Shown piece after piece: positions 7,509 through 58,973 of a stretch of 64,000 nt of DNA. Each line of letters opens with the position of its first letter. Position 1 is the stretch's first letter. The translations under genes were made by a program, and so were the position numbers. A model generated the notes under the pieces. It did not search any database. It was not told the DNA's origin and saw nothing but the letters and a program-made list of their open reading frames with translations. Source of the stretch: Chitinophagales bacterium (lineage in GTDB: Bacteria; Bacteroidota; Bacteroidia; Chitinophagales; UBA10324); contig JBGAWA010000001.1 in assembly GCA_044227805.1 (NCBI GenBank), positions 43,740 through 107,739 on the forward strand, given 5' to 3'.

Positions 7509-7883
7509 ATGCTTAATACCATGGCTATCCCTTCAACCCCAATTTTCAACAGAAGGGTAACGCAATATTTCAAAGAACTACCTGAGGTGAGTGCCGTAGC
7601 CGTTTTTACTTCAAAATGCGTGTTGAGGAAATATCCTATCACCCTTCTTTTTGACTCTTCCGCAACCGGTTCTGGTCAGTCGAACTATGCACGAATCGGT
7701 AATATCGCTGATACACCCTGCACGCTTGTTCAGCATTGATACATACCGGCAAGTATTGAGATGAGTTGAGCGACACTTTGCTGTGTTTCATAGTGAGAAC
7801 CCGAATTATGTTACAGCAAATGGCACCAACTTAATGATATGAAGCCACTTTGTTTTAACTTCGCCGAAATTTGAGATTGTACC

Positions 7884-10556: not shown

Positions 10557-10582
10557 ATTACAGCATTAAAACAACCAATCAT

Positions 10583-13025: not shown

Positions 13026-13042
13026 GCGGATAGCCATAGCGG

Positions 13043-13201
13043 TTGCCCAGCATTTTTAGTTTCAAAACATTAATGGGTTTTGGCCCGGCAAAGCTTTACT
13101 TTGGATTGCGAAACATTTTATTTTTTGAAAAATATGAGTAAAAGTTTTCCCGCTTCCATGACCGGCAACGCTGGATTTTTCAATGGAAAAATCCGGCTTA
13201 A
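13043..13201 (-). repeat. diverged copy of the 162-bp TIR/hairpin element
   Basis: Colinear by eye with the reverse-oriented element. CATTTTTAGTTTCAAAA corresponds to CATTTTGCAATTCAAAG, GCGAAACATTTTATTTTT to GTGAAACATTTTCTTTT, and CTGGATTTTTCAATGGAAAAATCCGGCTTAA to CGGGATTTTTCCACTGAAAAATCCGGGTTGAA. Confidence 0.5.
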
Positions 13202-14677: not shown

Positions 14678-14973
14678 TGATTATTACATACGACTGGTCA
14701 AGTAATAAGTATTTGTCATTCAGTAAAACCGGCGTGCATTTCCTGCATGTTGCATTGCCCGTAAAATGAAAGACCTGTTCATCCTGGCAGGGTCTTCAGC
14801 AATGGTCTGCTCACTTCTTAAAGGCGACAGAATCAACTTTATAGAAAGTTGAATCCGACAGTATCCATTGCATGTCTTACATTTTTAACCCTGGTTTTCA
14901 ATTGAAAAAACCCGGGCTAAAAATATAGGCAAAATCATTATATCGCGGAATCAATTTGATATTTTTACAGGAC

Positions 14974-16392
14974 ATGCAACCCATTACCATCCATGAATTA
15001 AAAAAGGTAATCGCACTCAGCGATTTACCCGATGAGCACCTGCAATGGCTCCTCGATCATTCAGAAACCGAAGAATATGAAGAGGGATCGGTGATAATGA
15101 AAACCGGCGAAATACCTGAGTACATGGTATTCATTGTGGAAGGCAAACTTTCATTTTACATGAATAACAATGGAACACTGGTGCATTATATTGATTTTGC
15201 CAACGACGAATCCACCGGTGGCGCAACCGGTTTATTGCCTTACTCCAGGATGAAAGTATCACCGGGCTATTCTATCGCCAATGGAAAACTGCGCAGTATC
15301 CGGTTGCATAAGAAGCACTTTGCCGCACTCGAGCAACTCAACCCTGATTTGATCCAGCGGCTGATCGGATACATGACAGAACGGGCAAGGTCATTTGCCA
15401 CTACGCAACTGCAGCATGAAAAGGTGAATGCATTGGGCAAGCTTGCCGCCGGCATAGCACATGAATTGAATAATCCGGCTGCTGCCATCAACAGGATCTC
15501 CGCTGAGCTGAGCAAGCGCCTGGATGAAAATTACCTCCTGACAGAAAAACTGCTGCAATACAATATCAGTCCGGAGCACCTCCGCAATATCCGCAGCATG
15601 GCCAATGAAAAAGAAAAAGAACGCAATAGCCATCCGAAGCTCAGCCCTTTGCAGCGACTGGAAAAAGAAGATGAAATCAATGACTGGCTTCATGAACAGG
15701 GGCCTGACGCCAATAAACTGACAGGCGAAACATTTGCTGACGCAGGATTTTCGGGTGCTGATCTCGAGAGCATCAGGGAAGATGCAGGCAAGGAAGCTTT
15801 CATACCTGTACTTTACTGGATTGAAAATTTGTTAAGTTCTCAGCGTGTCATCAAGGACCTGCATGAGGCCTCCTCGAGGATTTCCAATCTGGTTGGTGCC
15901 ATCAAAAGCCATGTACACATGGATCGAACCGCTGATCTGCAGCTGACGGATATTCACCGCGATATTGAAAACACCCTTACGCTGCTGGGATACAAACTGC
16001 GGGAGAAAAATATATCGGTGAAAAAAATATTCGCGGAAAACCTTCCTCCCATTCCAGCCTATGTGGGGGAACTTAACCAGGTATGGAACAATATTATTGA
16101 CAATGCGATCTTCGCGATGCCCAGGCAGGGTGAGTTGATTATTGAAACCGGCTTCAACAAGAAGAACGCAAATGTTAAATTTATTGATAACGGTCCGGGC
16201 ATCAGCCCAGAAATACTGTCCCGCATTTTTGATCCTTTTTTCACCACCAAAAAAGTAGGAGAAGGAACAGGGATAGGATTAGACCTGGTGAACCGTGCCA
16301 TCAAACACCACAATGGAGATATTAAAGTAAACTCAAAACCAGGCAGAACAGAGTTTTTGATCTGTCTCCCGGTAACGGAAGCAAAACAGTAA
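14974..16392 (+). CDS. sensor histidine kinase with an N-terminal cyclic-nucleotide-binding-like (CAP_ED) domain
   Basis: Track ORF starts at TTG 14956; the ATG is at 14974. It has an N-terminal beta-roll-like segment (GSVIMKTGEIPEYMVFIVEGKLSF), the H-box LGKLAAGIAHELNNPAAAI, and the HATPase_c motifs NIIDNAIFAM, DNGPGI and GTGIGL. No TM segment is evident. Confidence 0.85.
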   Translation: MQPITIHELKKVIALSDLPDEHLQWLLDHSETEEYEEGSVIMKTGEIPEYMVFIVEGKLSFYMNNNGTLVHYIDFANDESTGGATGLLPYSRMKVSPGYSIANGKLRSIRLHKKHFAALEQLNPDLIQRLIGYMTERARSFATTQLQHEKVNALGKLAAGIAHELNNPAAAINRISAELSKRLDENYLLTEKLLQYNISPEHLRNIRSMANEKEKERNSHPKLSPLQRLEKEDEINDWLHEQGPDANKLTGETFADAGFSGADLESIREDAGKEAFIPVLYWIENLLSSQRVIKDLHEASSRISNLVGAIKSHVHMDRTADLQLTDIHRDIENTLTLLGYKLREKNISVKKIFAENLPPIPAYVGELNQVWNNIIDNAIFAMPRQGELIIETGFNKKNANVKFIDNGPGISPEILSRIFDPFFTTKKVGEGTGIGLDLVNRAIKHHNGDIKVNSKPGRTEFLICLPVTEAKQ

Positions 16393-16396
16393 ACAG

Positions 16397-18058
16397 ATGA
16401 AACAACCCTTCATCATTCTGGTGGATGACGATGAGCAGGTGCTGCACGCCATTCAAAGGGATATCAGAAATGAATATCGTGATGCCTATCGCATCAGTGG
16501 CAATGCATCAGCCATAGAAGCCCTGGAGCTCATCAAAGCGCTTCACCTCAAAAATGAAACAATAGCCTTGATCATCTCCGATCAGCGCATGCCTGAAATG
16601 GAAGGCATTGATTTCCTTTCCAGGGCCAAAGAGATTTATCCTGATACGCGAACAATCTTACTCACGGCTTATTCTGATATCGAAGCGGCAATCAGGGCGA
16701 TCAACCTGATCAAACTGGACTATTACCTGCTGAAGCCCTGGAATCCACCGGAAGAAAAACTTTATCCTGTTGTAGATGATTTACTGGATGAATGGAACGC
16801 GCTTTATAAACCTGATCATGAAGGCATCCGCATAGTTGGGTTTCAATGGTCGCCCAAGTCACATAGGCTGAAAGAATTTCTTTCCGGAAACCTGATTCCC
16901 TTTTTATGGCTGGATGTTGAAACAAATAAAGGTGCTGAAAAATACCTTGCGAGCGCAAATGTGACCGCTGCTGAATTACCGCTGGTCATTCTGAAAGACG
17001 GCTCCTTCCTTTCAGACCCGGCTTTGCCAGATCTTGCAGCACATGTCGGGCTGCAACAAACCGCCAGCCACGAGGTATACGACGTATTGATTGCAGGAGC
17101 CGGGCCGGCAGGACTGGCCGCTTCGGTGTATGGCTCGTGCGAAGGGTTGAAGACCTTGCTGATTGAAAAAAATAACCCTGGCGGACAAGCCGGCAGCAGT
17201 GCGAGAATTGAAAATTATCTTGGCTTTCCCAAAGGCCTATCCGGCGCCGAACTCAGTCAGCGGGCCATTGCACAAACCCTCCGGTTCGGAACAGAAATAC
17301 TCACCCCCAAGAGTGTAAAAAACATTCGTATTCAGGACGGATATAAGATTGTGGAGATGACGGATGGTATGCAGGTAATGTGTAAATCCATCGTGATAGC
17401 AACAGGGGTTGAATACAGGAAGCTGGATATTCCCGGTATTGAAAACTTTACGGGTGCTGGCATTTATTATGGATCCGCTTCCGTGGAGGCGCGCGCCTGC
17501 AGAGATGAATGCGTTTATATTGTTGGAGGAGCTAACTCAGCTTGCCAGGCAGCACTTCACATCAGCAAGTTTGCCAGGGAAGTGAACCTGCTCATCAGAC
17601 GCGATTCCATAAAAAGCACTGCTGCCAATTACCTTGCTGAAAATATTGGCAAAACGCCGAATATCCATGTTCACCCACATACAGTGATCATCCGGGTGGA
17701 AGGCAATAAAGAACTGGAAAAAATTACACTGAAGAATGGAGCTACGGGAGAAGAAAAGACGGTGTCGGCCAAAGCGCTGTTTATTTATATCGGAGCCAAA
17801 CCCGGTACTACCTGGCTGAATGATCTGGTGCTGAAAGATGAAGCTGGTTTCATTGTTACCGGAAGCGACTTATTAAAAACAAAATCATTTAATTCGATCT
17901 GGAAACTTCAGCGGGAACCTTATATGGCGGAAACAAGTGTGCCCGGAATTTTTGCCTCAGGTGATGTGCGTTTCGGTGCCATGACTGGCATTTCTGCGGC
18001 GGTGGGAGAAGGCGCCATGGCTATTCGGTTTGTCCGGAAATACCTTAGTGAAATGTAA
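16397..18058 (+). CDS. response-regulator receiver fused to a thioredoxin-reductase-like FAD/NAD(P) oxidoreductase
   Basis: It starts 4 nt after the HK stop. The REC domain has DDD, SDQRMPEMEG and KP. The TrxR-like part has GAGPAGLAASVY, GGQ...IENYLGFP, VGGANSACQAALHISKF and GIFASGDV. The CATC active-site dithiol position reads GSAS. Confidence 0.85.
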   Translation: MKQPFIILVDDDEQVLHAIQRDIRNEYRDAYRISGNASAIEALELIKALHLKNETIALIISDQRMPEMEGIDFLSRAKEIYPDTRTILLTAYSDIEAAIRAINLIKLDYYLLKPWNPPEEKLYPVVDDLLDEWNALYKPDHEGIRIVGFQWSPKSHRLKEFLSGNLIPFLWLDVETNKGAEKYLASANVTAAELPLVILKDGSFLSDPALPDLAAHVGLQQTASHEVYDVLIAGAGPAGLAASVYGSCEGLKTLLIEKNNPGGQAGSSARIENYLGFPKGLSGAELSQRAIAQTLRFGTEILTPKSVKNIRIQDGYKIVEMTDGMQVMCKSIVIATGVEYRKLDIPGIENFTGAGIYYGSASVEARACRDECVYIVGGANSACQAALHISKFAREVNLLIRRDSIKSTAANYLAENIGKTPNIHVHPHTVIIRVEGNKELEKITLKNGATGEEKTVSAKALFIYIGAKPGTTWLNDLVLKDEAGFIVTGSDLLKTKSFNSIWKLQREPYMAETSVPGIFASGDVRFGAMTGISAAVGEGAMAIRFVRKYLSEM

Positions 18059-18263
18059 TATGCTGACTGCTGATAAAAAGAGAACCAATTTTGAGCAATT
18101 ACTTGAAGGATGCATTCAAGGCTCATCATCTACCATAGACTTGGTTCCGGACTTTTCCATTTTAAATTCCAAATAAATAAGACGACAAGCGGCTCGGCTG
18201 AGATAGATCGAATCGCCTCTCATTTCTTTCCATCTATCTTCATTTTCCCCAATAACACACGCT

Positions 18264-19235
18264 ATGACCAAGCAACAGGTGCTACATACCCTTAAAAAAC
18301 ATTTGCAAACGGCAATAGCACTCGAACATTCTACTTTACCACCCTACCTTACGGCTTATTGGAGTATTCAAGGCAATTCTGAAAATGCATTACATGTTAA
18401 AAATTATTTCCTCTCTGTAATACAGGAAGAAATGCTGCACATGGCAATGGCATGTAATATTCTGAATGCGATTGGCGGCACACCAAAAATCAATGATCCT
18501 TTGACTTTACCAGCATTTCCCTGTTCCTTGCCCGGCCATAGCAAAACCAACAATGCCTTTCTTGTGCACCTGGATAAATGCTGTCCGCAATCCGTAACCA
18601 ATTTTGTGCAGATAGAAATGCCGGAAGAATTCATGGGTAGCAAGCACCATGCAGACGGATGGTGTACCATTGGTGAATTTTATGATGAGATAACGACTTT
18701 GATACGGCACAATTCACTCAGTGATACTGATTTTACATTTGGAAAGCAGCTGGACAATTCCTTTAATCCCGGGAAAGGTAAATTATATAGCGTTCGAAAC
18801 AGGCAGGATGCGCTGAACGCATTGGATGAAATAATTGATCAGGGAGAAGGCCATTCCGGGAAACTTTATAATAAAGATCATGAACTCACGCATTACTGGA
18901 AATTTTTTGCCATCCGCGATCTGATGCAAAAGAACCTATGGCACTATGAAGAGGAAGTGATAAATATGGCCAGAGATCCGGATGAAAAATACTTTACAGC
19001 CGAAGCCAGGCAGCTCAATAACCATTTCAACATGCTCTACAGCGAGTTGCTGGACGCGATGCAAGCAGCATTCACCAGTGAGACACCATTACTTGATGAA
19101 CCGATAAGAATTATGTATTTGCTGAAAGAACCAGCCAGTGAACTCATGCAAATACCATTGGTAGGGAAAGAAGGTAATGCAGGTCCTACGTTCCGGTATA
19201 TGCGGCAGGACAAGAGAATCAGCTTGCTGCCATAG
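18264..19235 (+). CDS. ferritin-like domain protein (Pfam Ferritin-like, PF12902-type)
   Basis: 323 aa with LEHSTLPPYLTAYWSI and EEMLHMAMACNILNAIGG, as I remember for this family. Confidence 0.65.
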   Translation: MTKQQVLHTLKKHLQTAIALEHSTLPPYLTAYWSIQGNSENALHVKNYFLSVIQEEMLHMAMACNILNAIGGTPKINDPLTLPAFPCSLPGHSKTNNAFLVHLDKCCPQSVTNFVQIEMPEEFMGSKHHADGWCTIGEFYDEITTLIRHNSLSDTDFTFGKQLDNSFNPGKGKLYSVRNRQDALNALDEIIDQGEGHSGKLYNKDHELTHYWKFFAIRDLMQKNLWHYEEEVINMARDPDEKYFTAEARQLNNHFNMLYSELLDAMQAAFTSETPLLDEPIRIMYLLKEPASELMQIPLVGKEGNAGPTFRYMRQDKRISLLP

Positions 19236-19539
19236 CACAAATTCCTCATTCAAAGTTCGTTCAAAAAATTTTGCGACGTAATAACAATTTTCCTTTTATC
19301 CATCATTTACGCTGCAATCAGCAGTGACGTCAGATTATTTGAATGAAGCTTCCTGTTACAAATTAACTGCTGTGTATTCAATGGTCGCAACCCTTTCACC
19401 CTGTCCATTCACTCATTGTTAATGGTTACGTAATTTTATAGTATAAACACAAGCGAGAATGAAAATATTTCAACAAGTTGTTTCCGGGTTGGAAACGCAG
19501 GTTACCGCTCGTGCAACAGCTGTCTAAATCTTGTACAAC

Positions 19540-20811
19540 ATGGATACCAGTCATAAATTCAAGCCTGAGAGCCTGATGATGTCCTATGGTTATAAGCCAT
19601 CACTTTCAGAAGGTGCGATCAAGTCACCTGTTTTTCAGACCTCCACCTTTGTTTTCAAAAGCGCCGAAGAAGGCAAAGCTTTTTTTGAAGTCGCCTACGG
19701 TTTACGAGAAAAAAGAATTAACGAAAAGCCCGGTTTGATTTACAGCCGTATTAACAATCCTGATCTTGAAATTTTAGAAAACCGTTTAACCCTGTGGGAT
19801 GAAGCGGAAGACTGTGCTGTTTTTGAGAGTGGTATGTCCGCTATCAGCACGGTGTTGCTGGAGTTTCTGCAACCCGGAGACCTGCTGCTGTTCAGCACGC
19901 CGGTTTATGGTGGAACCGATCACCTCATTCATCATTTCCTCACAAGGTTCGGCATCCATGTATTGGCATTCAAGCCAGGAATGGATCAGCATGAAATCGA
20001 AAACCTGATTGAACAGACCGGATGGGCAGATAAACTGGCGATGATTTTTGTAGAGACACCTGCTAATCCCACCAATGCGCTCATTGATATTGCCTGTTGC
20101 AAGGCTATAGCGGATAAATACAGTACGAGAACCAGGCAGGTCTATTTGTCGGTTGACAACACCTATATGGGTCCTCTCTGGCAACACCCGTTGAAGTTAG
20201 GTGCGGATTTTTCAATTTATTCCGCTACCAAATATATTGGCGGTCATAGTGATGTAATTGCCGGTGCCTGTTGTGGAAATAAAACATTGATCGGCCGAGT
20301 AAAAACATTGCGGACATTTTTGGGAAACATGGCATCACCGCACACAGGCTGGTTACTGATGCGAAGCCTTGAAACCTTGAAAGTCAGAATGGAGCAACAA
20401 GCACTGAATGCGGAAAAAGTAGCTGAATTTTTAAGTTATCATCCTAAGATTGAACGGGTGAATTATCCGGGACTGATCTCAAAAGACACTAAGGAGTATG
20501 AAATCTTTAAAAGGCAATGCTCTTCACCAGGTGCCATGCTCTCATTTGAAATAGTGGGCGGCGAGCCTGAAGCATTTATGTTTATGAATTCATTAAAAAT
20601 GATCAAGCTGGCGGTAAGTCTTGGCGGTACTGAATCACTGGCTGAACACCCTGCAACCATGACACATGCCGGTGTGGAACCACATCAGCGGGAGGAGATG
20701 TCTATCACTGATAAGCTGATCAGGCTTTCCATTGGTGTGGAAAACTATAATGATATCATTTGGGACCTTCAGCAGGCATTAAGCAAAGTTCAACTGCTGG
20801 AGATAGCTTGA
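19540..20811 (+). CDS. Cys/Met-metabolism PLP-dependent enzyme (cystathionine gamma-synthase / beta-lyase / methionine gamma-lyase family)
   Basis: Track ORF starts at TTG 19531; the ATG is at 19540. It has the PLP-lysine context YSATKYIGGHSD and the typical C-terminal LIRLSIGVE. Confidence 0.85.
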   Translation: MDTSHKFKPESLMMSYGYKPSLSEGAIKSPVFQTSTFVFKSAEEGKAFFEVAYGLREKRINEKPGLIYSRINNPDLEILENRLTLWDEAEDCAVFESGMSAISTVLLEFLQPGDLLLFSTPVYGGTDHLIHHFLTRFGIHVLAFKPGMDQHEIENLIEQTGWADKLAMIFVETPANPTNALIDIACCKAIADKYSTRTRQVYLSVDNTYMGPLWQHPLKLGADFSIYSATKYIGGHSDVIAGACCGNKTLIGRVKTLRTFLGNMASPHTGWLLMRSLETLKVRMEQQALNAEKVAEFLSYHPKIERVNYPGLISKDTKEYEIFKRQCSSPGAMLSFEIVGGEPEAFMFMNSLKMIKLAVSLGGTESLAEHPATMTHAGVEPHQREEMSITDKLIRLSIGVENYNDIIWDLQQALSKVQLLEIA

Positions 20812-21073
20812 TGAAATAAGCTGAAGCAGACTGTGGTTCGGAATATTCATTCCAAAGAATTTTGTTGTGGCAGCACAAGATGGAAAGTTACAGGCTGAAG
20901 GTGCAATTCGAATATGCCTTGTCGACGTTTATGGATCTTCAATCGGGATCTTATCCATACACGCTGATTCTACAGTTGAAAGCATTGAGGTGATTTCTTC
21001 TGAAATAAAGTTGTTCATGATTCATCAAATACTTTTTGAACACATGAGAATACGCAAAATATTGCTACACCCA

Positions 21074-21118
21074 GGTTAAACCCGTTGCTATTTTGAACTG
21101 CCAAAAATGCGGATTGAA
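21074..21118 (+). repeat. solo right-end fragment of the 162-bp element
   Basis: GGTTAAACCCGTTGCTATTTTGAACTGCCAAAAATGCGGATTGAA matches the right ~45 bp of the element. The sequence upstream is unrelated. Confidence 0.6.
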
Positions 21119-21205
21119 CACGACATTTATTTTGTAGAATGACCATTATCATTTTTCATGGCTTTCATCAGTGCTAATTTTATGCTGAATTAAAACTTTT
21201 ATGCC

Positions 21206-22222
21206 ATGAAACTCCTACCAATTATTTCGCTGGCATTATGGCTTACGTTGCCATCTTATGCGCAAATTACATTGACCTCAGCGAATACTCCCGCAGCAGG
21301 TGACGATTATATCGCACAGGGATGTGATACGACCGGTGTTGAACCCGGAAACAGTGGTGCCAATGTCATGTGGGATTTCAGTGCCCTCATTCCGGAGGGG
21401 GAAGCCGTAACCGATCAGTACGTTACACCCGGCAGTACGCCTTATGCATCCTCTTTTCCCACTGCTACCATTGTTCAAAATGTGTATAACAGCTTATTCC
21501 TGTATTACAAAGTGACTGAAACAGCGCAGAGTTTTTTAGGAATGGGTAACTCTGTAATGCTGGAAATATATGATGATCCGGAATTGCTGATTTCCTTTCC
21601 TTTCACTTTCAATTCCACCTTAACGGATCCGTTTTCAGGCTCCTACGATGTGCTGGGAATTACCACCTATCACTTTGGAACCCATACACTCACAGCGGAT
21701 GCTTATGGCACGCTGATACTTCCTACCGGTACTTACAATAATGTGCTAAGGGTTAAATCGGTCAATGATGCGAAAGACTCGATGTATATTTTCGGTACAT
21801 CAAATGTCAATCATGATGTTAATGTCTCCTGGCTATGGTACACTGCCAGTGGCAGGTATCCCCTTTTTGAAATCGTGAAAACAACAAGCACTACACAAAG
21901 CGGAACTTATCACAGCAAGGCAGTAGCTTATAGAAGTGGCGGCACTTTCATTACCGAAAAAAATACATTGCACAGCATACTCATCAGCCCTAATCCTGTA
22001 GCCGATGCCGCCAACATTAAAGTGAACTGCAAGCATGCATGCTCTGCCATCATTAATGTTTTGGATCTTACCGGTAACAAGATGCAAAGTGTTTTTATTG
22101 GGTCACTACTTCCGGGTGTAAACGATTTTCATTTTAACAGGGGGCAGCTATCACCAGGCATGTACCTGCTGGAGGTAATTGCGGATGGAGTACGTGACGA
22201 GGCAAAAATCATCGTGCAATAA
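21206..22222 (+). CDS. secreted protein of unknown function with a T9SS C-terminal sorting domain
   Basis: 338 aa with a signal peptide (…LPSYAQ) and a C-terminal ISPNPVADAANI...GMYLLEV...KIIVQ. Confidence 0.7.
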   Translation: MKLLPIISLALWLTLPSYAQITLTSANTPAAGDDYIAQGCDTTGVEPGNSGANVMWDFSALIPEGEAVTDQYVTPGSTPYASSFPTATIVQNVYNSLFLYYKVTETAQSFLGMGNSVMLEIYDDPELLISFPFTFNSTLTDPFSGSYDVLGITTYHFGTHTLTADAYGTLILPTGTYNNVLRVKSVNDAKDSMYIFGTSNVNHDVNVSWLWYTASGRYPLFEIVKTTSTTQSGTYHSKAVAYRSGGTFITEKNTLHSILISPNPVADAANIKVNCKHACSAIINVLDLTGNKMQSVFIGSLLPGVNDFHFNRGQLSPGMYLLEVIADGVRDEAKIIVQ

Positions 22223-22323
22223 ATAAATGCAAACTGCAGCTGCTTACGTTCAATTTACAGATCAGGTTTATAACGTATTATTCCTGGAGGAGGAAAATTC
22301 CTCTGTTGTAGTGCCGAGCACAT

Positions 22324-22485
22324 TTGAACCCGGATTTTTCAGTGGAAAAATCCCGCTTTGCTGCGACTTAGAACTGCTAAGGGTTTGCTCAATTTGTCAA
22401 GAAAAGAAAATGTTTCACAAACCCTAAGCAGTTCTACGTCGGGGTTAAACCCGTTGCCGCTTTGAACTGCAAAATGTGGGTTGAA
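22324..22485 (+). repeat. 162-bp TIR/hairpin element, copy 1
   Basis: Direct sequence identity with the four other copies. It has terminal inverted repeats, a left hairpin and a long central stem. Confidence 0.9.
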
Positions 22486-22708
22486 ATTGCAAAGTACCTT
22501 CCTCACGAAATAAATCTCCCATGCTCAATAGCAACTGCAGTAACAACTGTTTGCATCCGTCCGTGATTGCTTTCAAATTTTTCTGCTACCTGGCGTATAT
22601 TTCAATCTATGTTTCGAACAGTATGCAAACCGGCTTAGTTACAGGTCAACTTTGCGCTTCAGTCCATCCGTTCCACCAGCAGCAGCAATTTGTGCTGATA
22701 ATAAGAAA

Positions 22709-25321
22709 ATGCAACACATGAATTTTCACCTTTTGTCGGTTGCTGAGATTTATAAATTGCTTGACAGCAGCGCTGAGGGACTGAGTGCTGAAGAGGGTGA
22801 ACAACGGTTACAGCAATACGGTCAAAACAGGTTAGCGGAAAGAAAAAAAGTATCGGCGGCAGTCCTGCTGTTATACCAGTTAAAAGAAGTTATGGTACTG
22901 ATACTGCTGGCCGCAGCAGCCATTTCAATGGTGACAGGCGATACAAAAGATGCCATTGTAATTATCGCTATTGTTATACTGAATGCCATCATTGGTTTTG
23001 TTCAGGAATACCGTGCCGGGAAAGCAATGGAAGCATTGAAGAAATTATCCGCATCCTATGCAACGGTCAGAAGGTCTGGCCATATCCGGCAATTACCGGC
23101 AACAGCAATAGTGCCTGGAGACGTTGTCATACTCGAAGCCGGTGTTATCGTACCGGCAGACATCCGGCTTACGCAGTCTCATTCATTAAGAATTGACGAA
23201 TCAGCACTTACCGGCGAAGCAAGCGCCGTGGAAAAATGTACGGAAGAAATAAATATTCCTCTTCTCCCGCTAGGCGATCGTCTTAACATGGCTTATAAAT
23301 CTACGATTGTAAGTTATGGGCGAGGTGAGGGAATGATAGTAGCTACAGGGATCAACACGGAAATCGGGCGTATCGCACAGCTGCTTGAGGCAGATGAACA
23401 ACAAACGCCACTGCAAAAAAGGTTAGCTGACTTTGGTAAAAAAATATCCATCATCGTCGTCATCATCTGCATGGTACTATTTGTTGCAGGATGGATGCGG
23501 GGAGAGGACACCATCAAAATGCTGCTCACCTCTATTTCCATCGCAGTAGCAGCTATTCCTGAAGCGTTGCCCGCTGTGATCACGATTGCATTGGCATTGG
23601 GTGCAAAACGGATGGTGCGGCAAAATGCGCTGATCAGAAAACTGACAGCCGTGGAGGCATTAGGTTCCGTCACCTACATCTGTTCTGATAAGACAGGTAC
23701 CATCACACAAAATCAGATGAAGGTGACCGATATGTGGCTCTCGCCTTCTTCCGGTGGCCTGTATGATTTATCAGCCAGAGATCTGTTGTTGCTGGCGATG
23801 GAAATGAATCATGATGTGGTAAAAGATGAAAACGATTCGCTGGTAGGAGACGCAACAGAAATTGCTCTCGCTAAATATGCGAGCAGTCATTTCCATCATG
23901 CAAAGTACTCCGATGGAAAGCGGACGCATGAGCTGCCCTTTGATCCGGGCAGAAAAAGGATGACGACTATTTACCCTTTTCAAAACAAATGGCTGATCGT
24001 AACCAAGGGTGCGGTTGAAACAGTACTGGCTATCTGCCATCCTTCCATTGATGATACAATAGCAGAAAAAGCAATAGACTTCGCAAAACAGGGCAAGCGG
24101 GTTTTGGCCTATGCCATCTGCGTTCTCGACAGGCTGCCGGATGTAATAGCCATTGAAACCATTGAACATCACTTGCAATGCATTGGCCTGGTAGCCATGA
24201 TGGACGCGCCAAGGGAAGGAGTTAAACAGGCTATCGCTGATTGCTACGAAGCCGGCATCACCCCCGTTATGATTACCGGTGATCATCCGGTAACGGCGAA
24301 AACAATTGCCATTGAAACCGGTATCATCCGGCATGAAACAGACAGGATCATGACCGGTCCGGAACTTGACGGATTACCTGACGGTGAATATGAAAGGTCC
24401 ATTGCCGATATTAAAGTGTATGCACGGGTTTCCCCTGAACAAAAACTCAGGATCATCAAGACGCTGCAACAAAAAAACGAGCTGGTGGCTATGACCGGTG
24501 ATGGTGTGAATGATGCCCCCGCATTGAAACGGGCAAACATTGGAATTGCCATGGGCATCACCGGCACGGAGGTGTCCAAAGAATCGGCTCATATGATTCT
24601 GCTCGATGACAATTTCACATCCATCATTCTTGCCGTGCGGGAAGGGAGAAGGATTTTTGACAACATCAGGAAATTCATAAAATATGTAATGGCCTGCAAT
24701 GGCGGTGAGCTATGGACCATCTGCCTGGCACCACTGGCGGGATTGCCTGTTCCGCTGCTGCCGGTACAAATTCTCTGGGTTAATCTCGTTACCGATGGAC
24801 TACCGGGTCTGGCATTCACAGTAGAACCGGCAGAAGAAAATGTACTCAAACGACTGCCGAGGAAACCCGGCGAGAGTTTTTTTGCCGGTGGACTTGGTGT
24901 TCACATTCTTTGGGTGGGTAGCCTGCTGGGCACCCTCTGTTTAGGAATTCAAGCCTGCACGTTTTACTTCGGTAACGATAACTGGCAAACCATGATTTTC
25001 ACCGTGCTGAGCATCTCACAACTCGGACATGCCATGGCTATCAGGAGTGATACGAAGTCACTATTCAAACAGGGAGTCTTTGGAAACAGACAATTGGCTT
25101 TGGCAGTATTACTTACATTGGGATTACAGATTGCCGCAGTGTATGTTCCTTTCATGCAAAACATGCTGGGCACTCAACCGCTTTCAATTCCTGAATTGCT
25201 AATCTGCATCCTGCTGTCCAGCATCGTATTCTGGGCGGTAGAAATTGAAAAATATTGTAAAAGAAACCGCATGCAAAAAAACACAGGATCATCTTTCAGG
25301 AAAAATGAATTTGCCCAGTAA
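22709..25321 (+). CDS. cation-transporting P-type ATPase (type II, Ca2+/Mg2+-like)
   Basis: Track ORF starts at 22652; the likely ATG is 22709 or 22718. Motifs: TGES-like TGEAS, phosphorylation site CSDKTGTITQNQM, TGDGVNDAPALK, IPEALPAV, and about 10 TMs. Confidence 0.9.
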   Translation: MQHMNFHLLSVAEIYKLLDSSAEGLSAEEGEQRLQQYGQNRLAERKKVSAAVLLLYQLKEVMVLILLAAAAISMVTGDTKDAIVIIAIVILNAIIGFVQEYRAGKAMEALKKLSASYATVRRSGHIRQLPATAIVPGDVVILEAGVIVPADIRLTQSHSLRIDESALTGEASAVEKCTEEINIPLLPLGDRLNMAYKSTIVSYGRGEGMIVATGINTEIGRIAQLLEADEQQTPLQKRLADFGKKISIIVVIICMVLFVAGWMRGEDTIKMLLTSISIAVAAIPEALPAVITIALALGAKRMVRQNALIRKLTAVEALGSVTYICSDKTGTITQNQMKVTDMWLSPSSGGLYDLSARDLLLLAMEMNHDVVKDENDSLVGDATEIALAKYASSHFHHAKYSDGKRTHELPFDPGRKRMTTIYPFQNKWLIVTKGAVETVLAICHPSIDDTIAEKAIDFAKQGKRVLAYAICVLDRLPDVIAIETIEHHLQCIGLVAMMDAPREGVKQAIADCYEAGITPVMITGDHPVTAKTIAIETGIIRHETDRIMTGPELDGLPDGEYERSIADIKVYARVSPEQKLRIIKTLQQKNELVAMTGDGVNDAPALKRANIGIAMGITGTEVSKESAHMILLDDNFTSIILAVREGRRIFDNIRKFIKYVMACNGGELWTICLAPLAGLPVPLLPVQILWVNLVTDGLPGLAFTVEPAEENVLKRLPRKPGESFFAGGLGVHILWVGSLLGTLCLGIQACTFYFGNDNWQTMIFTVLSISQLGHAMAIRSDTKSLFKQGVFGNRQLALAVLLTLGLQIAAVYVPFMQNMLGTQPLSIPELLICILLSSIVFWAVEIEKYCKRNRMQKNTGSSFRKNEFAQ

Positions 25322-25406
25322 CAGCAGGATATAAAATAAAGGTGTATCAGGCAACTTTTTTCCCCTTCACTTTATACCTTCAATGCGCAAATAAAAATTA
25401 TTCGCT

Positions 25407-26168
25407 ATGATAACCAACAAAATTGCCTTGATTACAGGAGGCAGCAGAGGACTGGGAAGAGATATGGCCATTCGGCTTGCTGAATACGGGCATGATGTGA
25501 TCATCACCTATCATACCCGCAAAGAACTTGCTCAGGAAGTGGCTACTGCCATTCAAAACCTCGGAAGAAAGTGCGCTATTCTGCAATTCGATGCTTCTAT
25601 ATTTGATTCCATTGATGCATTGCTAAAAAGCCTACAACAAACGCTGCAGGACAAATGGCAACGGTCACATTTCGATTTTTTGATCAACAACGGCGGTATT
25701 GGAGCCACCATTCCATTTTCGCAGGTGACGGAAGAAGACTTTGACCGCTTCCTCAACATCCATTTTAAAAGCATTTATTTCCTTACCCAACGGGCCTTGC
25801 CTTTGATTAATACCGGAGGAAGAATCATCAATATTTCAACAGGCACCACAAGGTTTTGCGTTCCGGGATATTCGGTTTATGCTTCTATGAAAGGAGCCAT
25901 CGAAACATTCACAAAATATCTTGCAAAAGAAGTGGGTGCGAGGGGAATAACCGCTAATGTGCTTGCACCCGGTCCTATTGAAACAGATTTCAACAATGCT
26001 GCACTCAGAAATAACCCGGACCGGAAAACACTGATGGCCACACTCACCGCATTGGGCAGAGTGGGTCAGCCGTCAGATATCGGTGGTATTGTTACGTTTC
26101 TTTGTTCAAATGATGCCGGCTGGATCACCGGACAAAGGATTGAAGCATCAGGTGGCATTAACTTGTAG
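25407..26168 (+). CDS. SDR-family oxidoreductase
   Basis: 253 aa with TGGSRGLG, NNGG and catalytic YASMKGA. Confidence 0.9.
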   Translation: MITNKIALITGGSRGLGRDMAIRLAEYGHDVIITYHTRKELAQEVATAIQNLGRKCAILQFDASIFDSIDALLKSLQQTLQDKWQRSHFDFLINNGGIGATIPFSQVTEEDFDRFLNIHFKSIYFLTQRALPLINTGGRIINISTGTTRFCVPGYSVYASMKGAIETFTKYLAKEVGARGITANVLAPGPIETDFNNAALRNNPDRKTLMATLTALGRVGQPSDIGGIVTFLCSNDAGWITGQRIEASGGINL

Positions 26169-26251
26169 TTACAATATTCGCTGGAGAATATGCTTTCTAA
26201 TACCATCAATCAATTCATACCATTCACCTCCGGTTCTTTAACTGAATATTT

Positions 26252-26833
26252 ATGCTATCACTGAACTTCACTCCTTTTCCTTCATTAATCACTGAGCATA
26301 TTGCATTGCGCCCTTTGACCGTTGCAGATGCCGGCGATGTTTATATTCACCGGTCTGATGAAAGAATCCTGAAATTTATTGACAGTCCCAGAGCAAAAAG
26401 CATTGATGATGCGATTGCATTTATTCTGAAAATAAATAAAGCTGTCGCTGATAACGAATCCATTTTCTGGGCTATCCAAGCCAGGAATAATCCTGGCATG
26501 ATCGGAAGCATCTGTTTATGGAAAATTAAGTTCGAGGAGGAAGAAGCGGAGGTTGGTTACGTATTACATCCGGACCACCAGGGAAAAGGCCTTATGCAGG
26601 AAGCCTTGCATACGGTGCTTGATTATGGATTTGATGAGATGCAGCTAAGGTGTATTCTCGCAGAAGTGCATCCAGACAATATCAGATCAATAGCATTGCT
26701 GGTCAGAAACGGATTCAGGCAACAATCCGTTGCTCCGGATACGGCGATTTATGCACTGGAACGCCAGTTCAGGATATCAACTGTAGCAAGCAAAAAATGC
26801 TGCTTTAGCCCGGATCGTTTTCCTTTAAGATAA
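26252..26833 (+). CDS. GNAT-family N-acetyltransferase (RimJ/RimL-like)
   Basis: 193 aa with HPDHQGKGLMQEAL and the typical acyl-CoA-binding core. Confidence 0.8.
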   Translation: MLSLNFTPFPSLITEHIALRPLTVADAGDVYIHRSDERILKFIDSPRAKSIDDAIAFILKINKAVADNESIFWAIQARNNPGMIGSICLWKIKFEEEEAEVGYVLHPDHQGKGLMQEALHTVLDYGFDEMQLRCILAEVHPDNIRSIALLVRNGFRQQSVAPDTAIYALERQFRISTVASKKCCFSPDRFPLR

Positions 26834-26868
26834 TGATACACGCCGGCATTGAACTGCAAAATCAAAGC

Positions 26869-27660
26869 TCATGACATCTTGCAGACCAGTTCCTTAAAAA
26901 ATTTATAGGCAACCATGGCTGTCATCTGATGCGAATCACGCAACGGATTATACTCAACAATATCCGCCGCCACAACAGGCACTTTTATTTTTTGAATCAT
27001 GTTAATCACATCCCGCGTAGTGAGCCCGCCAGGTTCATGATGTGAAACACCGGGCGCAAATGCCGGATCAAGCGCATCAAGATCGAGCGAAACATACAAA
27101 GGACCTTTCAGCTCATCTATACATGAATCATTGAACCCACTTGCTGGAATAATGCTGACACCAAATCTTTCTGCCTGTTCCCGCTGATGTGTATTTAAAG
27201 TCCGTATGCCAACCTGTGTCAGCGATGCAATGACGTTGCGTTCCATGATCCTGGCAAACGGAGAAGCATGTGAATATGGATTCTGATCAAAACTGTCATA
27301 CAGATCGGCATGCGCGTCAATATGAAGCACATGAAGCGGTTGATGGACCTCAGCCACAGCGGTAATGAGCGGATAGGAAACAGAATGGTCCCCTCCGAAA
27401 GAAAAAATTTTTGAATGCCGCGCCAGGAATTTTCTTGCACCATAAAGAATATGTTGAAAAGCAGCCTCAGGATCGGCCTGTTCAAATTCCAGGTCACCAC
27501 AATCGGTGAAGCTGAAACCTTCCCTGATTTCCATACCCTTCTCTGCAAATGCATTCGATGATCCGTCCTTCCACATCTGACGGATAACCGGCGGTGCCAG
27601 TGCGGCACCCCGCAGGAATGAAGAATTGGCATCGTAAGGAATTCCAACAAGTTGTACCAT
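26869..27660 (-). CDS. arginase/agmatinase-family ureohydrolase
   Basis: 263 aa with the Mn-binding motifs GGDHSVSYP, IDAHADL and SLDLDALDP. Confidence 0.85.
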   Translation of the reverse strand: MVQLVGIPYDANSSFLRGAALAPPVIRQMWKDGSSNAFAEKGMEIREGFSFTDCGDLEFEQADPEAAFQHILYGARKFLARHSKIFSFGGDHSVSYPLITAVAEVHQPLHVLHIDAHADLYDSFDQNPYSHASPFARIMERNVIASLTQVGIRTLNTHQREQAERFGVSIIPASGFNDSCIDELKGPLYVSLDLDALDPAFAPGVSHHEPGGLTTRDVINMIQKIKVPVVAADIVEYNPLRDSHQMTAMVAYKFFKELVCKMS

Positions 27661-27871
27661 CTAATCAAGAACATTCAAAAACATACAGTAGATCCTCCGA
27701 CCGAGGAGCAACCTTGCGTATCATCTTCAAAACACTGCACCAGTCCTTTCATCAAATAAATTTAACTATTTTACAAAGCGAAGCAATCACCTGATAGTTT
27801 TCAGTGGGTCAATGTAAGTACAGCATCCTTTCATCAGCAGTGCCAATGACCGCATTACCCTTTATCTCTCA

Positions 27872-28300
27872 ATGCTAAAAAACTATTACTTCTGGATCAA
27901 AACTGTCATTCTTTTGCAGACACTCACCTTCCTGGCGCATTCTATGAGTTTCTTTTTTACACCGGTGGGCGAGAATGACACCGAACGTCAATTAATTGAG
28001 CTGATGCAATCTTACCATTCGGATATGGGTGCCGGCTTTGTACCAACTACACAGGATATACTGACCGCATTCAGCGCCTGTTTTGTACTGCTGTACCTGT
28101 TGGGAGCGTTAATTAACTGGCAGTTGTTACGTGTGAAAGCCGATCTGATCACCTGGAAAGGCATCATCCACATCAATTTATTTGTGTATGGAATCAGCTT
28201 TGGGGTAATGGCCTTCTTTACTTTTTTACCACCTATCATACTCACCGGACTTGTATTTCTTTGTCTGCTGATCGCTAGATTTACCTTTCCAAAATCCTGA
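27872..28300 (+). CDS. small integral membrane protein, unknown function
   Basis: 142 aa with about 4 hydrophobic segments and no recognisable motif. Confidence 0.5.
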   Translation: MLKNYYFWIKTVILLQTLTFLAHSMSFFFTPVGENDTERQLIELMQSYHSDMGAGFVPTTQDILTAFSACFVLLYLLGALINWQLLRVKADLITWKGIIHINLFVYGISFGVMAFFTFLPPIILTGLVFLCLLIARFTFPKS

Positions 28301-28303
28301 CTG

Positions 28304-28924
28304 ATGTCCGTAATCAATCAACTGGCCACTTCGCTGGACCGCAGGGATGAAGAGCCGAATATTCACCTGGCCAAAAAGATAGCTGCCAGGGCAGACCATG
28401 AGGCTGTGGCCGAACTCATGGCATGCCTTCAGCACAAAGACAAAAATATCAGGCATGACTGCATCAAGGTTTTATATGAAGCAGCGGCCATTCAACCAGC
28501 ACTCATTGCACCCTACTACAAGAGGTTTCTTGAATTGCTGGAAACGGGCAGTACGAGGATGCTTTGGGGAGCCATGACTGCACTTGACTACGTAGCGCAA
28601 GAAATTCCCGGCGAGCTGTACAAAGCGCTGCCTAAAATTGTATCCGGTGCAGATAAAGATTCCGTTATTGCGCGCGACCATGCTGTTGGTATTTTTGCCA
28701 AACTCTCTTCGATGGAGCATTATGCTGGTAAAGCTTTTCCTGCGCTAATCAGGCAACTGCTGACATGTCCGCTCAATCAACTGCCGATGTATGCCGAGAT
28801 TGCATCGGCAAATGTCCTTAAGCAACACCGGCAAACATGCAGGGAAACGCTGCAAAAAAGACTTCCGGAAGTTGTAAAAGAATCGCAGCGCAAGCGATTG
28901 ATGAAAGTGCTGCGTAACTTATGA
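28304..28924 (+). CDS. hypothetical alpha-helical (HEAT/ARM-like) protein
   Basis: 206-aa ORF starting 3 nt after the upstream stop. Its composition is helical-repeat-like. The family is not recognised. Confidence 0.45.
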   Translation: MSVINQLATSLDRRDEEPNIHLAKKIAARADHEAVAELMACLQHKDKNIRHDCIKVLYEAAAIQPALIAPYYKRFLELLETGSTRMLWGAMTALDYVAQEIPGELYKALPKIVSGADKDSVIARDHAVGIFAKLSSMEHYAGKAFPALIRQLLTCPLNQLPMYAEIASANVLKQHRQTCRETLQKRLPEVVKESQRKRLMKVLRNL

Positions 28925-28988
28925 ATTACGTTTCCATGACCCTACATCATTCAGCTAAAAAGGGGTAGAAATCCCATGCCATCAAATC

Positions 28989-29552
28989 ATGAACGAAGAA
29001 TTAGGCTCAGCCCTTCTCAGGATTTCACCCTTTATCCTGCTGATTACTGTTATCAGCTTGTTTTTGCGGCTTAAGCGATTCAGCCGTAGCGACCTCCAGA
29101 TACAGCCTCCAGTTTCCTGGTTAATTTATGCCGGGTGGTGCCTTTCATTTTTACTATTTATTGCCGTTACTGAAGTTGTTATGCTCAAAATCGGCCTTCT
29201 GAAGACAGACTCCTGGCAGCATCCGTTCTTGCCTTCCATCATCAGGATAACAGGTGCAGTTATTCTGGCACCAGTGGCAGAAGAATTATTTTTCAGAGGA
29301 TTGCTTTTGTTCCGCCTGGAGCAATTGAAGATCCGACGGCCCATAATTATCGTTATACAGGCTATACTTTTTGTGATCTCCCACCATTTCGCTTATGAAA
29401 ATACAATGGAATCAAATATCGCTGTGGTGCAGACATTGGCAGACGCAACGCTGTATGCCTGTGCCAGGTACCACACCAAATCATTGCTGACACCGATAAC
29501 CATGCATATGTCTGGAAACATCATTGCGACGCTGGAGCGGTTCATTCTGTGA
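28989..29552 (+). CDS. CPBP-family intramembrane glutamic endopeptidase (CAAX protease-like)
   Basis: 187 aa, multi-TM, with EELFFRGLL and later His motifs (SHHF, TMHMSGN). Confidence 0.75.
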   Translation: MNEELGSALLRISPFILLITVISLFLRLKRFSRSDLQIQPPVSWLIYAGWCLSFLLFIAVTEVVMLKIGLLKTDSWQHPFLPSIIRITGAVILAPVAEELFFRGLLLFRLEQLKIRRPIIIVIQAILFVISHHFAYENTMESNIAVVQTLADATLYACARYHTKSLLTPITMHMSGNIIATLERFIL

Positions 29553-29820
29553 CACAAAAAGCAGCCGGGGGGTGCCATAGTAGTGGCACTTTCCGATCAT
29601 GCCCTTCTTGCGGTTACAGCAATCAATTTTTAATAAAAAGAATATCTTTCTGTGCAATTTGACGCAAGAAAGTGATTTGAACCGATTGGGGGAAATTCAC
29701 ATCATATCACATTGGATGTGTACTAGTGAGCGATAGTTCGGCTCCGCTCAGCATTACTTTCCACTGATTTATTTCAAAACAGATTTTTATATATTGTCAA
29801 CCGTTCAAAATACAGTTACC

Positions 29821-30210: not shown

Positions 30211-30426
30211 ATCGAAAATGACAGACTGCTGAAATCCTGTTTACCATTTTCCGGCTGCCGGCAGGGAATTCATGGGAGGATCAAGCACCAGCCGTTTTGA
30301 TAAGACAACGCAGAATTTCATAGTAGACCAATTCCATTTTAACAATAAAGCATTTTGAATTTTTGAAGAATTAATCCACGCTGTTCATAAAGCGGTCCAT
30401 TCAATTTCATCAGTTGGTATCATGCG

Positions 30427-31635: not shown

Positions 31636-31780
31636 AAAGCCGCATTTTGCAGTTCAAAATAATAGCGGACAGAAACCTGGCCTGGCGTTGCAAAGGTTTT
31701 GAAAAACGTTTGACTTTTTTAAAGCAGCAACAGCACCTTTGCTGCTCAACCATTCAGTGGAACTAATTTTTCAGTTAAAT
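31636..31780 (-). repeat. strongly diverged copy of the 162-bp element (tentative)
   Basis: CCGCATTTTGCAGTTCAAA matches the element's right TIR in reverse orientation. Internal GCAAAGGT / ACCTTTGC arms flank an A/T-rich loop. The far end is poorly alignable. Confidence 0.35.
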
Positions 31781-31816
31781 ATTCAGGATTAGAGTTACCA
31801 GTCAATAGCATTGATC

Positions 31817-36974: not shown

Positions 36975-37089
36975 AAGAATAAAATTTTGGGTTAAGAAAT
37001 AAATACAAAGCTAAAATAGCATTTTTTTAATTCGTAGGGTGAAAAAAATAGTATTACAGCTTCATTGGGAGGTTATGATCAACAGCGTG

Positions 37090-37214
37090 TTGAACCCCCT
37101 ACATAACACCGCTAAAAGTTTGCAAAACATTTCCTTTTACTGTAAAAATGAGCAACCTTTTAGCAGATCATTGTCGCAGCGAAGAAGGCTTTTTCCAGAT
37201 TAAATCCGGATTAA
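37090..37214 (-). repeat. diverged, internally shortened copy of the 162-bp element
   Basis: TTGAACCC ... GCTAAAAGTTTGCAAAACATTTCCTTTT ... GAGCAACCTTTTAGCAG ... GTCGCAGCGAAG ... GGCTTTTTCCAGATTAAATCCGGATTAA is colinear with the reverse-oriented element. The stem positions are changed in a compensatory way. Confidence 0.6.
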
Positions 37215-39115: not shown

Positions 39116-39277
39116 TTCAACCCGGATTTTTCAGTGGAAAAATCCCGCTTCGCTGCGACTTAGAACTGCTAAGGGTTTGCTCAATTTGTATAGAAAAGAA
39201 AATGTTTCACAAACCCTAAGCTGTTCTACGTCGGGGTTAAACCCGTTGCCGCTTTGAACTGCAAAATGCGGGTTCAA
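39116..39277 (+). repeat. 162-bp TIR/hairpin element, copy 2
   Basis: Direct identity with the other copies. It lies 75 bp downstream of the DtxR-family gene stop. Confidence 0.9.
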
Positions 39278-42991: not shown

Positions 42992-43316
42992 ATAGCCAGT
43001 ATTGAACGCAACCGAAGCCGGAATACCGCGACCTGCATTCATGCTTGGTGATTTATACGATTACGTTTTTTCAACCCGCATTTTCCGGTTAAAAACCACC
43101 TCTTATGATAGGCATGCTGCATTGAGGACAACATGGAAGCCATGAATTAAAGCAAGACTTTTTTAGGGTAAGAGTGGATACAAAAAGAAAAAAAGAGAGG
43201 GTGATTCACTTAAAATTGAACTTATTCTTCCCTGTTCGGATTTTTTTTCGAAATTTGCGCCCTTAACTTTTTACAAAACCGATTAATAGTTAGTCAGTTA
43301 TAAATCAAATTACTCC

Positions 43317-49267: not shown

Positions 49268-49376
49268 AATGCCTGCCTGTTTGACGAAAGACCACAATCT
49301 GTAAATCATTGCACCTTAGCAGGGACGGCATGCTGAAAACTATTTCCGGCTTCCTTCTTCAACCCCCATTTTTAAG

Positions 49377-49539
49377 TTCAACCCGGATTTTTCAGTAGAA
49401 AAATCCCGCTTCGCTACGACTTATAACTGCTAAGGGTTTGCTCATCTTTTTCAAGAAAAGAAAATGTTTCGCAAACCCTAAGCAGTTCTACGTCGGGGTT
49501 AAACCCGGCGTCGTTTTGAATTGCAAAATGTGGGTTCAA
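49377..49539 (+). repeat. 162-bp TIR/hairpin element, copy 3
   Basis: Direct identity with the other copies, although it is the most substituted of the five. A 16-bp duplicate of the left end lies at 49358-49373, and an inverted left-end module lies at 49631-49672. Confidence 0.9.
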
Positions 49540-49860
49540 AGCAGCAGCAGATTTAACCTGAAGCTGAACTGTTTATGGTTTATGATTTTTTTCCTTTATG
49601 AAAAGGACCAACCTCTTGGCAGTTCTTTGATGCAGCGAATCGGAAATTTTCAATAGAAAAATCCAGGTTCCATGCTGACTCAAGCGAAAGCGGTAAGCAT
49701 GAATAAAAATCGAAATTCATATCATTCTGTAAAGCAAATACACCTTTCAGTGCGAATGATCAACGTCACTTTCCGGCATGACTAAGATCATGTATTGGCA
49801 TACCGGAGCAGCCTACTTTTGAGTATAATTTCCTCTCTCCAAAAACCAAAATTTACTACT

Positions 49861-51932: not shown

Positions 51933-52094
51933 TTGAACCCACATTTTGCAATTCAAAGCGGCAACGGGTTTAACCCCGACGTAGAGCTGCTTAGGGTTTG
52001 TGAAACATTTTCTTTTCTTGACAAATTGAGCAAACCCTTAGCAGCTCTAAGTCGCAGCGAAGCGGGATTTTTCCACTGAAAAATCCGGGTTGAA
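51933..52094 (-). repeat. 162-bp TIR/hairpin element, copy 4 (reverse orientation)
   Basis: Its reverse complement is near-identical to copies 1, 2 and 5. It is followed by an extra ~33-bp duplicate of the hairpin end module at 52095-52128. Confidence 0.9.
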
Positions 52095-52323
52095 CCAGGA
52101 AATTTCCATTGAAAAATCCGGGTGAAAGGAAATCGTTATATCAAATTGGCTCTATTACTTATCTGCATCCAGCCATGCAAGGATATGACAACACAGCTCA
52201 ATGGTAATCAGGTTAATCTTCCCGGAACTGGTTGTCGGCAAGCCTTCAAATAAAAGAGTGTTAAAATTACTATACAGGTAGGATACACCGGCATCCATGC
52301 AAAAAACCTTGCTTATCCTGAAT

Positions 52324-58801: not shown

Positions 58802-58812
58802 AAAGCGTACAA

Positions 58813-58973
58813 TAAACCCGGATTTTTCAGTGGAAAAATCCCGCTTCGCTGCGACTCAGAACTGCTAAGGGTTTGCTCAATTTGTCAAGAAATGAAAATG
58901 TTTCACAAACCCTAAGCAGTTCTACGTCGGGGTTAAACCCGTTGCCGCTTTGAACTGCAAAATGTGGGATTAA
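58813..58973 (+). repeat. 162-bp TIR/hairpin element, copy 5
   Basis: Direct identity with the other copies. Its outermost TIR bases are degraded (TAAACCC... and ...GGGATTAA). It lies between convergent gene ends. Confidence 0.9.

Follow-up and report, generated by a model that had tools for sequence, protein, structure and literature searches.

Bacterial MITEs have a size of about 50-800 bp (PMC11602168). They are known to be numerous in Bacteroidota, where automatic cataloguing has listed millions of them (PMC11602168; reviewed in PMC10969869). Bacterial MITEs in general, for example the Correia elements (CREE) of Neisseria, RUP of Streptococcus pneumoniae, MITEAba12 and the catalogued elements of Bacteroidota, have a number of properties in common. 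They are 100-200 bp long and non-coding, have terminal inverted repeats, duplicate their target site and lie between genes. They also fold strongly, occur in many copies, can be nested in one another and are moved by a transposase supplied in trans. Clustering of repeats has been described for the pneumococcal repeats (PMC10969869). The REP/BIME repeats and the palindromic elements derived from IS200/IS605 are likewise intergenic, hairpin-rich repeats near gene ends, but they have neither a target-site duplication nor terminal inverted repeats. The Correia element duplicates TA and has a 26-bp terminal repeat of defined Neisseria sequence.

Here we describe a repeat that agrees with bacterial MITEs in size, lack of coding capacity, ends, target-site duplication, location, folding, copy number, nesting and clustering, would likewise be moved by a transposase supplied in trans, and is very probably a non-autonomous DNA transposon (MITE) of an uncultured Chitinophagales bacterium. 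In contrast to the REP/BIME and IS200/IS605-derived repeats, it has both a target-site duplication and terminal inverted repeats. Its sequence is unrelated to those of the named bacterial MITE families that were testable here. The family sequence looks undescribed, while MITEs are a well-known kind of element, and the general understanding of MITEs is unchanged by it.

The window, by which we mean the whole 64,000-nt stretch of DNA that was analysed, is a core chromosomal region of a member of the Bacteroidota with a G+C content of 44-45%. It encodes proteins with T9SS sorting domains, GldD, Icd, SSB, MutY and RNase G, and no tRNA gene was found in it. The closest named homologues of its Icd come from Chitinophagales MAGs.

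Young copies in the window

An earlier note, made from the sequence alone, had reported five near-identical copies of about 162 bp in the window. All five were recovered on the strands given there, four of them at exactly the same coordinates; only c5 had to be corrected, as with its 5-bp flank it begins at 58812 and not at 58813 (Table 1). In an alignment that included 20 bp of flank on each side, identity begins and ends sharply at the ends of the element. Two sub-patterns of 28-36 nt each have exactly five matches at up to three mismatches, where none is expected (100 shuffles). The 152-bp bodies of c1-c5 differ from one another at 3-16 positions, or at 2-16 when a sixth copy (c6, see below) is added, and c3 is the most diverged young copy of the window.

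Every one of the five copies is intergenic, in agreement with the earlier note, and both orientations are seen relative to the flanking genes. The c2 copy lies on the plus strand between two minus-strand genes and is therefore antisense to local transcription. An MntR-like gene adjoins it, for which the protein look-up returned no record. The c5 copy lies 11 bp past the stop codon of a response-regulator/cyclase gene, as this gene is annotated in the metagenome contig L036, where it is intact.

The body is non-coding. The reading frames that cross the element vary from copy to copy and none of them is conserved, as had been proposed for the small ORFs. A query with a concatenated six-frame pseudo-protein had no match, and the internal 48-aa ORF, in its c4 version, had no record in the protein look-up. 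The view that the repeat belongs to no recognised family was also upheld, with no Rfam match at gathering thresholds over the whole window; the sub-threshold matches were generic hairpins (miRNA-type) only. No description of the family was found in the literature on its ends, on TTCAA duplications or on Chitinophagales MITEs, a comparison that took in the main text of PMC11602168.

The left hairpin (GGATTTTTC-AGTG-GAAAAATCC) and the central stem of about 24 bp that had been recognised by eye are both present in the minimum-free-energy fold of either strand. One strand folds at -58 kcal/mol (z = -5.4) and the other at -59 kcal/mol (z = -6.0), which none of 200 shuffles equalled. Besides the left hairpin, with a 9-bp stem, and the central stem, which encloses an A/T-rich loop, the fold includes a small GGG/CCC hairpin. 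In a simple scan, whose promoter part covered sigma-70-like and not Bacteroidota-type promoters, no copy was consistently flagged as a promoter or as an intrinsic terminator.

Table 1. Copies of the element, fragments and similar elements. Positions are those of the window unless a locus is named.
Feature	Position	Strand	Flanks (left/right)	Remarks
c1, young copy	22324..22485	+	TTGAA/TTGAA	152-bp body 22329-22480
c2, young copy	39116..39277	+	TTCAA/TTCAA	minus-strand gene on either side
c3, young copy	49377..49539	+	TTCAA/TTCAA	sits within older copy d1
c4, young copy	51933..52094	-	TTCAA/TTCAA	paired change A45G/T105C in central stem; abuts 28-bp mini-palindrome
c5, young copy	58812..58973	+	ATAAA/ATTAA	body 58817-58968; imperfect 5-bp duplication
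c6, young copy	L012, L014		TTCAA/TTCAA	site empty in window
c7, young copy	L046		TTGAA/TTGAA	gyrB locus
c8, young copy	L046		TTTAA/TTTAA	gyrB locus
d1, older copy, main piece	49535..49670	-		~72% identical to young copies; interrupted by c3
d1, right-end piece	49358..49381	-		TTGAACTTAAAAATGGGGGTTGAA on minus strand; immediately left of c3, the rest of d1 immediately right
d2, older copy	37062..37214	-		~73% identity; long central stem kept with different sequence
d3, older copy	13046..13201	-		directly after terminator-like hairpin of upstream PKD/T9SS gene
d4, old decayed copy	31637..31790	-		nhmmer E = 2e-11
3'-end fragment	21052..21117	+		model positions 98-161
28-bp mini-palindrome	52092..52123	-		two terminal repeats (CCCGGATTTTTCAATGGAAATTTCCTGG); directly abuts c4
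Solo mini-palindrome	14885..14915	+		CCCTGGTTTTCAATTGAAAAAACCCGGG; weak evidence
Right-end-like fragment	43070..43099	-		TTTTAACCGGAAAATGCGGGTTGAA; weak evidence
Right-end-like fragment	7584..7625	+		very weak evidence
Empty target site TTGAA	20976-20980	.		c6 here in L012/L014, with TTGAA duplicated
Element in Elusimicrobia	L007:5549-5724		CTAC/CTAC	left end CCCGGATTTTTCAGTTGAAAAATCC
Element in Omnitrophota	L011:about 960-1137	-	CTTAA and TTTAA	ends in ...GTGCAAAATTCGGG
Units in one Omnitrophota MAG	L002:3231-3399; L006:1439-1575			137-169 bp, ending in perfect GAAAAATCCGGG; no evident duplication
Bare palindrome	L004:6743-6770			28 bp, two terminal repeats

Boundaries and target-site duplication

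The element proper is 152 bp long (CCCGG...GTGGG) and its target is TTNAA. The earlier note had described its ends as inverted repeats matching at 17 of 20 positions. Imperfect inverted repeats are indeed present, but the outermost TTCAA/TTGAA belongs to the target-site duplication and not to the repeat. The true terminal repeat, CCCGGATTTTTCAGT against CCCACATTTTGCAGT (the reverse complement of the right end), matches at 12 of 15 positions and at 8 of the first 10. The pair of ends can be written as CCCGGATTTTTC...GCAAAATNNGGG, and the left hairpin is this terminal repeat followed directly by its own inverted copy (CCCGGATTTTTC / GAAAAATCCCGC). The doubling of the left repeat into a hairpin, and a long central stem that is separate from the terminal repeats, distinguish the element from other bacterial MITEs.

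A comparison with empty sites, which the earlier note had suggested, was carried out and gave a 5-bp target-site duplication. The additional young copy c6 is found in contigs of the same species (L012 and L014), between a Cys/Met-metabolism gene and a T9SS gene and upstream of the latter, whereas the same site is empty in the window and in L015. The empty site of the window is ...CTACAG TTGAA AGCATT..., compared with ...CTACAG TTGAA [152 bp] TTGAA AGCATT... at the filled site, a difference of exactly 157 bp (152 + 5). The nested copy c3 is a second case. It divides the older copy d1 precisely at the internal TTGAA that is part of the family consensus, and c3 is flanked by TTCAA on the left and on the right. 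The filled and empty sites, together with the nested copy, prove insertion with a 5-bp duplication.

The flanking pentamers of the other copies agree with this, apart from the imperfect pair at c5. The left and right pentamers co-vary within each copy (Table 1), and because TTTAA, found on both sides of c8, is not its own reverse complement, the pentamers are direct repeats, as a target-site duplication is. Every clean target is TTNAA. The sequences would therefore be identical if only the 3 bp TNA were duplicated and the terminal repeat were longer by one A...T pair, and the two cases are formally indistinguishable.

Older copies and fragments

The figure of five copies in 64 kb proved too low. 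Searches of the window with blastn and with an nhmmer profile of the family revealed four older full-length copies (d1-d4) and several fragments, among them mini-palindromes that consist of two terminal repeats (Table 1). The identity of the older copies is about 72-75% where it was measured. The family therefore comprises at least two generations, a recent burst and a set of older, decaying copies.

In d1 and d3-d5, the last of which is described below, the central stem has disappeared in part or altogether. Among the young copies, c4 and c7 have the paired change A45G/T105C in common, and the stem stays intact in both. This change represents a single inherited event and is compatible either with selection for the stem in master copies or with quasi-palindrome template switching. 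RNAalifold gave a poor consensus for young and old copies together, as the old copies align poorly and have decayed in part, and the covariation evidence is limited to d2 and to the paired change of c4 and c7.

Immediately before d3, at 13000-13046, there is a GC-rich hairpin with a run of T (GCGCCCCGCAGTTTGCCGGGGCTTTTTTTT). It is likely to be the terminator of the upstream PKD/T9SS gene, and it is conserved in a relative with 90% Icd identity that is without d3.

Copies in the species and its relatives

The same species is present in many ENA and Logan metagenome assemblies. The expectation of further copies beyond the five was confirmed both in the window and elsewhere in this species. In about 90 kb of its DNA there are eight young copies. 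To these are added the four older full-length copies of the window and, in L013 and L046, others that are old or partial. The L046 contig, a gyrB locus that was reached through a spurious 66-aa ORF crossing the element, contains the young copies c7 and c8 and an old, internally deleted copy about 55 bp from c7. Of the eight young insertions, three are situated in or beside older members of the family: c3 in d1, c4 at the mini-palindrome and c7 close to the old copy just mentioned. Such a pattern suggests that the element prefers to insert close to its own ends, or else that permissive sites were shared.

The element has been active recently in the population and is well supported as still mobile. 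In this uncultured environmental lineage of Chitinophagales, insertion polymorphism is directly visible between metagenome assemblies, and the copies could be used as strain-level markers. The element is also seen in the way the assemblies break. Eight of the ten contigs that carry the gene upstream of c1 end 28-138 nt into the element, and seven of nine end inside c5. Short-read assemblers usually break at repeats; therefore, the element accounts for the fragmentation of short-read assemblies of the species at these points. One contig, L013 (1399-1560 and downstream), joins c1 to another region, with a heavy-metal P-type ATPase, Crp-type regulators and a nos cluster, and this region carries another old copy, d5. 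The join is either a recombination between copies of the element or an assembly chimera through the repeat, and the element may cause chimeric or rearranged contigs of this kind.

The relative with 98% Icd identity (L030) carries d3 at the orthologous position. No match to the family was found, even at E = 10, in a locus of about 21 kb from each of three further relatives, whose Icd identities are 90% (L031), 89% (L028, JGI) and 86% (L029, GCA_013816805.1); L028 and L031 are syntenic with the window. Three scans of a viral collection gave no family match, and neither did a strict and a permissive scan (left hairpin plus right end) of the JGI metagenome collection. A blastn search of plasmids with the whole element and with its left end returned chance matches only.

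Nature of the element

The repeat is small and without a transposase gene, has terminal inverted repeats and a target-site duplication, and is dispersed in multiple copies. These are the features of a MITE, and the earlier description of a MITE-like dispersed element holds with respect to its inverted ends, its lack of coding capacity and its insertion with duplication. The same note had seen a resemblance to Correia elements and REP/BIME units. As membership, this is excluded by the length and the sequence of the duplication. A Correia element is ruled out by the 5-bp duplication at TTNAA, and the host is a Chitinophagales bacterium.

Three other readings were weighed against that of a MITE. 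An IS200/IS605-type derivative would be moved as single-stranded DNA by a Y1 TnpA and inserted 3' of TTNAA; the right TTNAA would then belong to the element, and there would be no true duplication. Hairpins at the ends and a strong fold on both strands would suit such an element, and the filled and empty sites of c6, taken alone, would fit insertion 3' of TTGAA. However, a right end borne by the element would be constant, and the right pentamer instead changes with the left flank, as c1, c7 and c8 show when they are compared with c2-c4. This co-variation largely refutes the reading, to which the terminal inverted repeats and the lack of a Y1 or TnpB gene in the window are also opposed, and we consider it very improbable. 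It is hardly credible, too, that the copies are REP/BIME-like host palindromes, kept by a RAYT and serving mRNA stability or termination with no transposition. They are intergenic, palindromic, clustered and mostly situated just past stop codons, as such palindromes are, but strains differ by a precise 157-bp insertion with a 5-bp duplication, and the unit is 152 bp long with terminal inverted repeats. No copy was consistently flagged in the simple terminator scan. A RAYT or TnpA(Y1) gene flanked by the hairpin, for which the earlier note had proposed a search, was looked for in the window and none was found.

The strong folding (z about -5 to -6) might rather indicate a structured small RNA or a cis-regulatory RNA, the structure of which is under selection and which mobility merely spreads. 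The central stem kept by d2 with a different sequence, and the change A45G/T105C common to c4 and c7, would be in line with this. However, the copies stand in both orientations relative to transcription, d3, d4 and d5 have lost the stem, there is no Rfam match, and neither sigma-70-like promoters nor terminators are consistently associated with the copies. The paired change goes back to a single event, which was inherited and which template switching within a quasi-palindrome could produce without selection. We give such an RNA family only a slim chance, and a functional role of the structure is not proven.

Search for an autonomous parent

As a MITE, the element would depend on a transposase encoded elsewhere. 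We infer that this enzyme would be of the DDE type, bind the ends of the element and insert it at TTNAA through a 5-bp staggered cut, from which the 5-bp direct duplication would result. No transposase was found in the window. A search for an autonomous IS bounded by matching ends, which covered the window, 48 other loci and the viral, plasmid and JGI collections, was negative. In the 89% relative, an IS3-family (rve) transposase pair is encoded at L028:17606-18861; the search for the end sequences found no paired ends in this locus, and nhmmer found no family match.

Insertion sequences of the IS1380 family, for example ISEcp1, have ends that start with CC and duplicate 4-5 bp of their target; the family is common in Bacteroidota and frequent in Bacteroides. 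We take it to be the best-fitting parent family, IS1634, ISH3, Tn3 and IS3 presumably being worse on the ends. On plasmid pC15-1a, the ends of ISEcp1, CCTAGATTCTACGT and CCTAAATTCCACGT, lie beside an annotated IS1380-like transposase. They have CC...ATT...C in common with the left end of the element, and the duplication length and the CC start also fit. However, about 6-7 of 12 end positions match, which is not significant, and neither an IS1380-type transposase nor a full-length element with the ends of the MITE was found. IS1380 is therefore only a lead. The TTNAA target, the doubled terminal repeat and the ends seen in other phyla, which are described below, together provide a handle for finding the responsible transposase.

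Similar ends in Elusimicrobia and Omnitrophota

Loci from other phyla were obtained by scanning genome contigs for the hairpin pattern. As the pattern itself demanded the hairpin, independent evidence comes solely from the CCC extension and from the right ends. About half of the matches listed are chance hairpins; five are plain hairpins without the CCC extension or any other resemblance.

The elements in Elusimicrobia and Omnitrophota are all intergenic, and their left end is identical to that of the MITE over 25 nt (CCCGGATTTTTCAGTNGAAAAATCC). Similar right ends follow 135-176 bp away, with AACTGCAGAATTCGGG in L007, GTGCAAAATTCGGG in L011 and GAAAAATCCGGG in L002 and L006, compared with AACTGCAAAATGTGGG in the Chitinophagales element. 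The interiors, in contrast, are unrelated to it, and none of these elements has a clear target-site duplication (Table 1). About 176 bp downstream in L007, ...CAACTGCAGAATTCGGG matches ...GAACTGCAAAATGTGGG of the Chitinophagales element at 13 of 17 positions. According to a rough calculation of our own, a right end this similar would turn up by chance within about 100 positions with a probability of roughly 1e-3 per locus. At this level of chance the ends look homologous across the phyla, which would point to a shared type of transposase.

The only Rfam family in the Elusimicrobia and Omnitrophota loci is represented by a tRNA gene (L007, 5375-5448). In a Pfam search with 31 ORFs of these loci, no transposase was among the best 25 of the 50 families matched. 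A wider reading would see in the ends, that is, in the doubled-repeat hairpin CCCGGATTTTTC-AGTN-GAAAAATCC together with the right end ...CTGCAAAATNNGGG, the signature of an undescribed or unlinked transposase lineage that moves unrelated elements without cargo in three or more phyla (Bacteroidota, Elusimicrobiota and Omnitrophota). We regard this as rather unlikely. If it were true, the 28-bp palindromes of two repeats would be minimal substrates of that transposase.

In Omnitrophota MAGs from four studies, the hairpin is followed by a conserved structured stretch of about 100 nt, GCCCTGAGC...GAAGGGCCGCA.GGACAAACTC...GAGTTTGTCC...TTTGCGGGG, which has no Rfam match. It is found in the L002, L006 and L011 elements of Table 1 and in L009 (about 500-676), where it lies directly upstream of an ORF start. 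The stretch may represent either a family of MITEs or an RNA motif that has not been described.

Other features of the window

A block of about 15.5 kb (about 14900-30300) is lineage-specific, because in the relative with 90% Icd identity (L031, L032) icd directly precedes the orthologue of the gene at 30427-31623. The solo mini-palindrome is located at the left edge of this block. The genes in it encode a histidine kinase, a response regulator/oxidoreductase, a ferritin-like protein, a Cys/Met enzyme and a T9SS protein, and further a Ca-ATPase, an SDR, a GNAT and an arginase.

Four diverged 77-nt direct repeats (9897-12627) are found within two large T9SS-sorted proteins that are adjacent to each other, and they correspond to repeated PKD domains. 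The response-regulator/guanylate-cyclase gene (57779-58729) has four indels of 1-2 bp with respect to L036 and L037, near 57779, 58501, 58708 and 58729. It encodes 344 aa in L036, compared with an ORF of 249 aa (57781-58530) in the window. The indels are either errors of a long-read assembly or the marks of a real pseudogene. A 155-nt direct repeat with 72% identity (55569-55723 and 56932-57086) lies in a cluster of small histidine-kinase ORFs and probably reflects paralogous or fragmented kinase genes; where the window has these short ORFs, L036 has a single kinase of 455 aa.
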